Of a stretch of DNA of 12,481 nt, positions 11,557-12,004 are shown piece after piece. This DNA is from a virus (taxonomy: Duplodnaviria > Heunggongvirae > Uroviricota > Caudoviricetes). The notes under the pieces were generated by a model that was given only the letters and a program-made list of their open reading frames with translations, was not told the origin of the DNA and did no database searches. The number at the start of each line of letters is the position of its first letter. Position 1 is the stretch's first letter. The position numbers and the translations under genes are program-made. The stretch lies in IMG/VR virus record IMGVR_UViG_2617270959_000010, one strand, 5' to 3'.

Positions 11557-11718
11557 TTATTTAATCAATGAGTTCTGAAAGGTATGAAGTCTATCATCCA
11601 AGTCTCAATCGATCGATACTTGCGGTAGTTGATGAGGAAAACTCTGGTACACAAAGCTTTGCACTGGACTGCAAGGTGTTGTGCTTCTCTGGAGTGCGAT
11701 ATGTTTGATGACAAAAAA

Positions 11719-11753
11719 TTAGCGCAAGAGGACAAAAAATCACCTTGCGCTAA
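11719..11753 (-). promoter_or_regulatory. Perfect 10-bp inverted repeat TTAGCGCAAG-N15-CTTGCGCTAA upstream of the gtr operon; candidate operator or insulating terminator
   Basis: Read directly; on the minus strand the stem-loop is followed immediately by TTTTTTGT (complement of 11711-11718); lies between the att P arm and the gtrA start. Confidence 0.35.
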
Positions 11754-11759
11754 TGCTCT

Positions 11760-11899
11760 GTCTCAGGTCACTAATACCATCTAAGTAGTTGATTCATAGT
11801 GACTGGATATGTTGTTTTTTGTAGTATCATGCAGTCTATTTTTTAGACTAAATGTGTTTTAACACATTGATATTATTGGCTTTTGCTGTTTCGCGTTCA
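11760..11899. promoter_or_regulatory. Lambda-type attachment-site P arm (Int arm-type sites P1 and P2, presumed IHF/Xis/Fis sites)
   Basis: CAGGTCACTAATAC (11764-11777) and CATAGTGACTGG (11795-11806, inverted) match lambda Int arm-type sites; the whole stretch is collinear with the lambda attP P arm as I remember it (TCTGTTACAGGTCACTAATACCATCTAAGTAGTTGATTCATAGTGACTG...TCGTTCAGCTTTTTTATACTAA), nearly identical for the first 60 nt or so. Confidence 0.7.
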
Positions 11900-11914
11900 G
11901 CTTTTTTATACTAA
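11900..11914. mobile_element. attR core (lambda common core GCTTTTTTATACTAA) joined to the bacterial B' arm
   Basis: Exact 15-bp lambda core; downstream CTTGAGCGAAACGG is the B' flank of E. coli attB(lambda), upstream is the phage P arm, giving a P-O-B' (attR) configuration. Confidence 0.85.
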
Positions 11915-11973
11915 CTTGAGCGAAACGGGAAGGTAAAAAGACAAAAAGTTGTTTTTAATACCTTTAAGTGATA

Positions 11974-11996
11974 CCAGATGGCATAGCGCCATCTGG
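11974..11996 (-). terminator. Stem-loop downstream of ybhB (CCAGATGGC-ATAGC-GCCATCTGG); possible weak terminator
   Basis: 9-bp perfect stem starting 9 nt after the ybhB stop; no canonical U-tract immediately following, so function is uncertain. Confidence 0.3.
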
Positions 11997-12004
11997 CAGA
12001 GTGA

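Follow-up and report, generated by a model that had tools for sequence, protein, structure and literature searches.

In lambda-type integration a P-O-B' arrangement is by definition an attR, in which the C-O-B' segment is joined to the P arm (PMC4880445). During excision IHF bends this arm at H2, three Xis and Fis bend it further, so that P2 can reach the Int at B'. Pairing of the attR complex with attL is followed by strand exchange at the edges of the overlap region; P1 and H1 serve integration (PMC4880445). The sib element lowers Int synthesis from read-through pL transcripts, as also known from classical lambda work (PMC2951348). In KplE1, which has the argW arrangement with intS, attL overlaps the intS promoter (PMC2951348). 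Prophages located between ybhC and ybhB are routinely reported in the literature.

Several users of this site provide a background for the locus described here. HK106, HK629, HK630, the P22-like vB_EcoP-720R6 and an O157:H7 prophage have both the site and the P-arm family in common with it, and in all the lambda-attB users that we compared the locus immediately to the left of the P arm carries variable cargo. In some it is a diguanylate cyclase or an AraC regulator, in O157 the type III secretion effectors nleB2, nleC, nleH1 and nleD, and in the present case gtrABC. The virion modules of the other attB users are those of siphoviruses or podoviruses, whereas the present element has a myovirus-type tail. 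Its closest described phages are SfII, SfV and SfI of Shigella flexneri, which together with SfIV share with it a Mu-like tail and baseplate and a gtrA-gtrB-gtr(type) cassette directly beside the attachment site. In SfV the cassette runs gtrA-gtrB-gtrV, the same gene order as here. SfV differs in what follows gtrA, an attP with the 3' end of a tRNA (thrW) and its own int and xis, in the place where the present element has a lambda P arm.

Here we analyse a stretch of 12,481 nucleotides, hereafter the window, from a Caudoviricetes record in IMG/VR (IMGVR_UViG_2617270959_000010). An initial annotation, made from the letters of this DNA, had described one end of the window as the attR end of a prophage, with a lambda-type P arm and core fused to the host B' arm and ybhB. 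Core, lambda P arm, B' flank and ybhB are all present, at coordinates that are exact or one base off from those first given. We put at roughly 0.93 the probability that positions 11645-12004 are an attR (P arm, core and B' arm) that arose when Int recombined a lambda-type attP with the lambda attB of E. coli, which lies between ybhC and ybhB. The junction, its mechanism and the mosaic principle that it illustrates are already established, and nothing in the locus is new in kind.

The 15-base lambda core, GCTTTTTTATACTAA, occurs exactly at 11900-11914, as the initial annotation had it, and is the sole match in the window even with a tolerance of two mismatches; the chance expectation in this search is 0.02 matches, and four of 200 shuffled sequences gave one. 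Together with the core-type Int site C the core O occupies 11890-11914 on the plus strand, where 24 of 25 bases agree with lambda 27714-27738 and the core itself is exact. The crossover point is the core, with TTTATAC as its overlap region. The phage-host boundary was located by searching 11640-12004 against 5,426 complete E. coli genomes. Where a genome has no P arm, its match starts at query base 261, corresponding to window position 11900, the first base of the core. This break in homology puts the boundary exactly where lambda Int exchanges strands. A P-arm-core-B' junction (at least 80% of 11640-12004 covered) is present in 1918 of these 5,426 genomes, about one third, and the exact 365-base sequence occurs in RefSeq in EcPF15, at 100% identity. 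RefSeq has no feature annotated at 11645-11914.

The DNA preceding the core had been described as collinear with the P arm of lambda attP, and alignment to lambda attP and E. coli attB had been proposed as a check. We aligned the region pairwise with lambda (J02459) 27459-27779, taking the Int footprint coordinates as annotated in the lambda record. Window positions 11645-11914, comprising the P arm and the tI/sib region, align collinearly with lambda 27470-27738 at 235 of 270 positions, and by reading the host side (11915-12004) corresponds to the K-12 flank with one mismatch. The sole insertion or deletion relative to lambda is one nucleotide in the loop of the tI hairpin, with none between P1 and the core, so that P1 and the end of the core are 156 bp apart, as in lambda. 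When 50,697 phage records were searched with 11560-12004 by blastn, lambda matched at 11645-11918 (86.9% identity, E = 6e-88), and HK106, HK629 and HK630 matched at the spots that their records annotate as attP. The P arms of HK106 (91.1%) and 720R6 (93.6%) are both closer to that of the window than is the P arm of lambda (87%).

Of the arm-type sites for Int, P1 lies at 11759-11778 on the plus strand; it corresponds to the 'int 1' footprint of lambda (27583-27602), with 18 of 20 bases identical, and contains the arm-type motif CAGGTCACTAATAC at 11764-11777. P2, the 'int 2' footprint (lambda 27615-27634), lies at 11791-11810 on the same strand (19/20) and contains the motif CATAGTGACTGG at 11795-11806; these two motifs are the arm-type Int sites that had been picked out initially. 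IHF recognizes the consensus WATCAANNNNTTR, and two sites on the minus strand fit it. H1, at 11779-11795, reads AATCAACTACTTA on the bottom strand, agrees with lambda 27603-27614 at 12 of 12 bases and is nearly invariant among eight P arms from different prophages. H2, at 11857-11889, reads TATCAATGTGTTA on the bottom strand and agrees with lambda 27681-27713 at 22 of 33 bases (67%), its TTGATAT core being kept while the flanks vary. Between P2 and H2, collinearity is the sole basis for assigning to 11811-11856 on the plus strand the Xis sites (X1, X1.5, X2) and a Fis site that overlaps them and includes an A/T tract. In this segment 35 of 46 bases (76%) match lambda 27635-27680; X1 differs from lambda by one base and X2 by several. 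In an alignment of the eight P arms, the tI hairpin, P1-H1-P2, X1, the core of H2 and the common core are conserved and the spacers vary; X2 and the Fis site are less well kept than X1, and the same variants of the Xis/Fis segment recur in other attB-lambda prophages. From these alignments, the P arm appears to keep the lambda order of tI/sib, P1, H1, P2, Xis/Fis sites, H2 and C, with lambda spacing.

The tI/sib element itself, at 11706-11765 on the minus strand, had been overlooked in the initial annotation, within the interval given there for the junction. Here the lambda tI intrinsic terminator and its extended sib stem are matched at 36 of 38 bases. The arms of the tI hairpin lie at 11719-11728 and 11744-11753 and are followed on the minus strand by six U residues (11718-11713); the minus-strand RNA of 11706-11765 has a folding energy of -42.2 kcal/mol (z = -4.7), with the same 12-bp stem, U6 and extended hairpin as in lambda. 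With an int-sense hairpin, a U-run and an extendable stem, the segment has the predicted structure of a tI/sib retroregulator, and RNase III would be its putative nuclease. A consensus promoter and terminator scan of 11400-12100 found no sigma-70-like promoter, and the only terminator-like site that it returned was a plus-strand hairpin at 11656-11677; tI escaped the scan because its loop exceeds the limit of 8 nt, and folding was used instead. Rfam holds no model for tI/sib, and the lone match in an Rfam scan of 11300-12100 (E <= 1), to a plant miRNA at 23 bits against a gathering score of 87, was discarded as noise. In the prophage state, integration parts tI/sib from int, and induced int mRNA would escape retroregulation by RNase III. 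With ybhB on one side and the co-directional gtr operon on the other, tI could also, as we see it, block read-through; this insulating role is speculative, since no sigma-70 promoter for gtr came out of the consensus scan.

On the host side of the core, the B' flank CTTGAGCGAAACGG is found at 11915-11928, as had been claimed. The B' arm and the remaining ybhC-ybhB intergenic DNA (11915-12004, plus strand) are K-12 MG1655 DNA from the right of attB (L003 2844-2933) with a single differing base when the two sequences are compared by reading; this mismatch falls in the hairpin distal to ybhB, at about 11976-11998. The flanking gene, at 12005-12481 on the minus strand, is ybhB (kinase-inhibitor/PEBP family), on the bio side of lambda attB, and its product is full length at 158 aa and identical to K-12 YbhB at 156 of the 158 residues. 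In the sibling genomes described below RefSeq annotates ybhB and then bioA, in agreement with the gene assignment of the initial annotation.

The window stops inside the prophage, and the partner attL and the integrase are seen in sibling genomes only. Over its full length the window is matched at 99.0-99.5% by nine complete E. coli genomes, whose prophages are laid out as ybhC - attL (B-O-P') - int - xis ... gtrCBA - attR - ybhB - bioA. We examined one of them, M00057, which matches the whole window at 99.4%. Its left end carries ybhJ, ybhC, int (356 aa) and xis (72 aa), then lambdoid early genes, which are followed by an HK97-type head, a contractile tail with a Mu-type baseplate, a tail fibre and a hypothetical protein; its right end carries yfdH and yfdG (the gtr cassette), ybhB and bioA. 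Between ybhC and int the sequence reads GCCTGCTTTTTTATACTAAGTTGGCATTATAAAAAAGCATTGCTTATCAATTTGTTGCAACGAACAGGTCACTATCAGTC, which is B-O-P', with a second exact core at L001 3840-3854; the two cores are 43.3 kb apart. Both int and xis are intact, and their products are identical to those of lambda at 353 of 356 and 71 of 72 residues, respectively. The matching attL and the lambda-type int and xis that had been predicted for the other prophage end, and with them the lambda-family integrase, are thus found in this sibling. Neither of the findings that the initial annotation had named as speaking against its reading, namely the absence of a second core and int gene or a flanking gene other than ybhB, is seen in the sibling genomes. 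Under lambda-type integration, the ybhC side of the source genome of the window would read ...GCCTGCTTTTTTATACTAAGTTGGCATTATAAAAAAGC... (B-O-P').

In summary of its likeness to lambda, the locus shares with lambda attP and attR the 15-bp core, the order and spacing of the sites, the host site at ybhC/ybhB and the B' arm, and Int and Xis are 99% identical in the siblings. It departs from lambda in its P arm, where most of the changes fall in the Xis/Fis segment and the flanks of H2, and in what lies to the left of that arm, which is gtrABC and Mu-type tail genes in the window and the b region and J/stf in lambda. The statement that the structural genes of the window are not lambda-like holds by Pfam, PHROG and nucleotide comparison, which identify Mu/SfV-type baseplate genes; the window ORFs have Pfam matches to DNA_circ_N, GpP-like, Gp44-like, GP46, Baseplate_J and Mu Gp48. 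At the nucleotide level, SfII, SfV and SfI are 94.5% identical over 69% of window positions 1-11600.

Adjoining the P arm, 8815-11556 on the minus strand is a predicted O-antigen glucosylation cassette, a cargo that the initial annotation had passed over. Its genes gtrA (11194-11556) and gtrB (10283-11197), both on the minus strand, are recognized by Pfam (GtrA_DPMS_TM, Glycos_transf_2) and PHROG (GtrA-like and GtrB-like O-antigen conversion). The third gene, at 8815-10281 on the same strand, encodes a polytopic membrane protein of 488 aa in which roughly seven hydrophobic segments precede a soluble C-terminal part; we infer that it occupies the GtrC position. The gene is not the allele of the Sf phages, and not even an argW-type sibling prophage that otherwise resembles the window closely matches its nucleotide sequence across 8730-10270. 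A search upstream of gtrA for a Dam/OxyR phase-variation signature gave a lone GATC (11611-11614) in 11501-12010.

This argW-type sibling, of the KplE1 (CPS-53) type with IntS/TorI, is 98.3% identical over window positions 1-11685 and has gtr at the same position. It differs in its integration genes: intS lies directly after gtrA, between gtrA and tRNA-Arg, whereas int and xis of the window's prophage lie at the far end, as in lambda. These comparisons place the window's prophage with SfV in virion and cargo, and they separate it from the SfV-type integrators. The same virion-plus-gtr backbone thus appears with three integration modules (thrW, argW and lambda), of which the window has that of lambda. 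Because structural and gtr genes of SfII/SfV/SfI type are combined with a lambda integration module, the element is a mosaic of an SfV-type serotype-converting myovirus and the integration module of lambda.

The joint of this mosaic lies at 11645-11690, where three- and four-way alignments delimit a segment of about 45 bp with an imperfect inverted repeat (CACAAAGC...GCAAGG...TTGTG). The segment is common to lambda (27470-27515) and the argW siblings (just downstream of intS) and is diverged in SfV. Megablast homology to the argW type ends at 11685 and homology to lambda begins at 11645, and by these alignments the hairpin segment marks the joint between gtr cassette and integration module. 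A further difference that the initial annotation had overlooked concerns the two arms of the integration module itself: the P arm is only 87% identical to lambda, while the P'-int-xis side in M00057 shows 1403 bp of nucleotide homology to lambda at 97.8%. The two sides thus have different histories, as would be expected if site-specific recombination among the various phages that use lambda attB reassorts the arms at the core; co-adaptation of the P arm and the P' side is assumed here.

The prophage copy in the window is itself damaged, a tail defect that had likewise gone unremarked. Compared with M00057, the window carries a deletion of 868 bp (L001 39254-40121), flanked by two GGCAG repeats, which cuts the Mu gp44/P-like hub gene at codon 173 of 359 and removes the first 100 or so codons of the gpV gene; the Mu N-like gene in addition carries the nonsense mutation W410stop. 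With this deletion and nonsense codon, the copy is predicted to be unable to build a baseplate or tails and could at most excise, and it probably persists as a cryptic gtr-carrying prophage. Other lineage members also show decay. The early region of M00057 carries IS30, IS3 and ISEc31 insertions, and EcPF15 retains a remnant of about 7 kb, a later stage of decay that consists of int, xis, a tail-fibre remnant, gtrCBA and the attR end only. Window positions 7256-12481 differ from the EcPF15 attB remnant (L007 9617-14842, through attR and ybhB) by one base.

The deletion junction has a distribution of its own. Matches to it at 100% over 251 bp are confined to defective prophages at argW, in three genomes, and no complete E. 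coli genome in the collection pairs the baseplate deletion with the attB location. From about 3360 to 5817 the window shows two differences from the defective argW copy and about 60 from the attB sibling; from about 5880 to 7495 the relation is reversed, with 35 differences from the argW copy and two from the attB sibling. Left of about 3360 the window is again closer to the attB sibling, from which it differs at eight positions over 1-3424; further upstream the argW copies are more diverged, that of strain 300033 being 96.7% identical over window positions 1-2242. The simplest reading of this pattern is that the patch of about 2.4 kb at 3360-5817 stems from recombination or gene conversion between sibling prophages.

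The evidence for the attR can be set against other readings of the junction. Core and surrounding region are both AT-rich, and a chance or low-complexity resemblance in an AT-rich intergenic stretch might be suspected, but 270 collinear bases at 87%, the E value of the lambda match, the small number of cores expected by chance and a homology breakpoint exactly at the core make this extremely improbable. That the P-O-B'-ybhB arrangement lies inside a phage genome, as in a transducing phage of the lambda-bio type or as an internal fossil, and not on a chromosome is a more concrete proposal, given that the annotation of phage DN1 includes an attR site and a bio locus acquired by transduction and that PPompW prophages hold an internal, diverged P-O-B' fossil. 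The host part of the window, complete ybhB included, is nevertheless identical or 99% identical to chromosomal K-12 DNA, and all near-identical matches are chromosomal and run on into bioA and bioB. The PPompW fossil, moreover, is only 78.7% identical and lacks ybhB. We therefore regard a phage-borne copy as very unlikely. Two candidate precedents for it were rejected: the match of vB_EcoP-720R6 across the core belongs to a prophage record that includes ybhB-bioA-bioB-bioF, and PPompW offers a diverged internal fossil without ybhB.

A different question is whether the attR survives merely as a scar of a grounded prophage, in which int, xis or attL have been lost or the Xis and H2 sites are dead; this concerns the present activity of the site and not its origin. 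The lineage evidently decays in place, as seen in the baseplate deletion and nonsense codon of the window copy, in the insertion sequences that interrupt the early region of M00057 and in the short EcPF15 remnant, and the Xis/Fis and H2 segments are only 76% and 67% identical to lambda. Yet that remnant, whose right end is the one a single base away from the window, still has annotated int and xis adjoining ybhC, and Int and Xis of M00057 are intact and 99% identical to those of lambda. P2, C, the core and the P1-to-core spacing are also conserved, and the same variable positions recur in many attB-lambda prophages. On balance we consider a grounded relic doubtful, while giving it far more weight than either of the preceding alternatives.

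If the attR formed by lambda-type integration is still served by its recombinase, its excision can be outlined by analogy with lambda, all binding and recombination steps being putative. IHF at H2 and Xis, with Fis, at X1-X2 would bend the arm, which would allow a single Int to bridge B' and P2. Synapsis of the attR complex with attL would follow, and then strand exchange across TTTATAC.

The exchange of modules and the transfer of lesions between prophages are side observations, and mildly interesting ones. We entertain, at somewhat less than even odds, a scenario in which integration modules (thrW, argW or lambda attB) are swapped between co-resident relatives at the hairpin segment, which separates the gtr cassette from the attachment region in all three module types, and a gene-conversion patch of about 2.4 kb (about 3360-5817) carried the baseplate deletion and the nonsense codon between a defective prophage at argW and the one at attB.

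In practical terms, the analysis gives the window a map position in E. coli, next to lambda attB on its bio side, and fixes the prophage boundary to the base, with the crossover within 11900-11914. In annotation, 11645-11914 should carry the label attR/P arm with tI/sib. No open question hangs on the junction, which shows cleanly how temperate phages exchange integration cassettes as modules and how a prophage decays where it sits. If the scenario of module swapping and lesion transfer is true, inactivating lesions would spread among the sibling prophages of one chromosome and speed their domestication without loss of gtrABC, int, xis or the att sites.

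The prophage in the window is tail-defective. A W410stop mutation (codon at 4293-4295) interrupts its Mu N-like 'DNA circularization' gene (3066-4394), and within the adjoining affected stretch (4391-5145) an 868-bp deletion, flanked by GGCAG repeats at both ends and with its junction at 4901-4905, has cut the Mu gp44/P-like hub gene to 173 of its 359 codons and joined it out of frame to the rest of the gpV gene.

Both lesions fall in a patch (~3360-5817) that has just 2 differences from the defective argW-integrated prophages of strain 300033 (L013 7263-11716) and strain 300444 (L012), but about 60 from the sibling prophage integrated at attB. 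To the right of the patch (~5880-7495) the pattern flips, with 35 differences against the argW copy and 2 against the attB sibling, and to its left the window is again nearer the attB sibling than the argW copies. The comparison suggests that sibling prophages have exchanged DNA by recombination or gene conversion. Strain 300033 harbors both prophage types.

The two halves of the integration module are not equally close to lambda. The segment spanning core, P', int and xis, taken from the attB sibling of strain M00057 (L001 3840-5242), is 97.8% identical to lambda, whereas the P arm (window 11645-11914) shows 87% identity to lambda and more to HK106 (91%) and a P22-like prophage (93.6%). This difference fits a reassortment of the module arms at the core.

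A segment of ~45 bp that contains an imperfect inverted repeat separates the gtr cassette from the attachment region in both the lambda-attB and argW (intS) module types (window 11645-11690; argW sibling L006 ~18615-18665; lambda 27470-27515); the SfV (thrW) module type holds it in the same position, but in a diverged form (L014 ~2975-3025). Homology breakpoints coincide with this segment, which might serve as a terminator for int or have a role in gtr regulation.

At the gtrC position, the window encodes a 488-aa protein (8815-10281, minus strand) with about 7 hydrophobic segments and a soluble C-terminal part. A Pfam search with this protein returned no match, and its PHROG matches were confined to families of unknown function. 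Nothing in the argW sibling (L006) matches the gene at the nucleotide level, and we therefore regard the gene as a distinct, putatively serotype-specific allele.

In EcPF15 (NZ_CP054227.1 1420776-1428011), a prophage of the window's lineage has shrunk to about 7 kb, comprising int, xis, two pseudogenes, a tail-fibre remnant, tfa and gtrCBA. Only one base differs between window 7256-12481 and the corresponding EcPF15 region (L007 9617-14842), and the gtr cassette, int, xis and the attR end have outlasted decay.

Lambda-attB prophages (L008, L009, L010 and L011; about 4 kb on the left side of each attR) have a hot spot for cargo immediately to the left of the P arm. It is occupied by a diguanylate cyclase in two strains, by an AraC-family regulator with IS debris in another case, and by nleB2, nleC, nleH1 and nleD in O157:H7. 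The first core base is altered in two strains of this set (CACC... and CAAC... instead of CAGC...).

Lambdoid prophages integrated at ompW hold an internal attR-like copy, ordered as tI, P arm, core-like sequence (GGCTTTTTATACTAA) and B' flank (L005 ~6995-7280; PPompW_132418, LC567822.1 37682-37959, and seven sister records). This copy has diverged (78.7% identity), retains most of the host intergenic DNA from attB to ybhB, and is neighbored by a host-specificity gene on one side and by the espO, nleG and espM effector genes on the other. It looks like a fossil attR that an imprecise excision at lambda attB left behind long ago.
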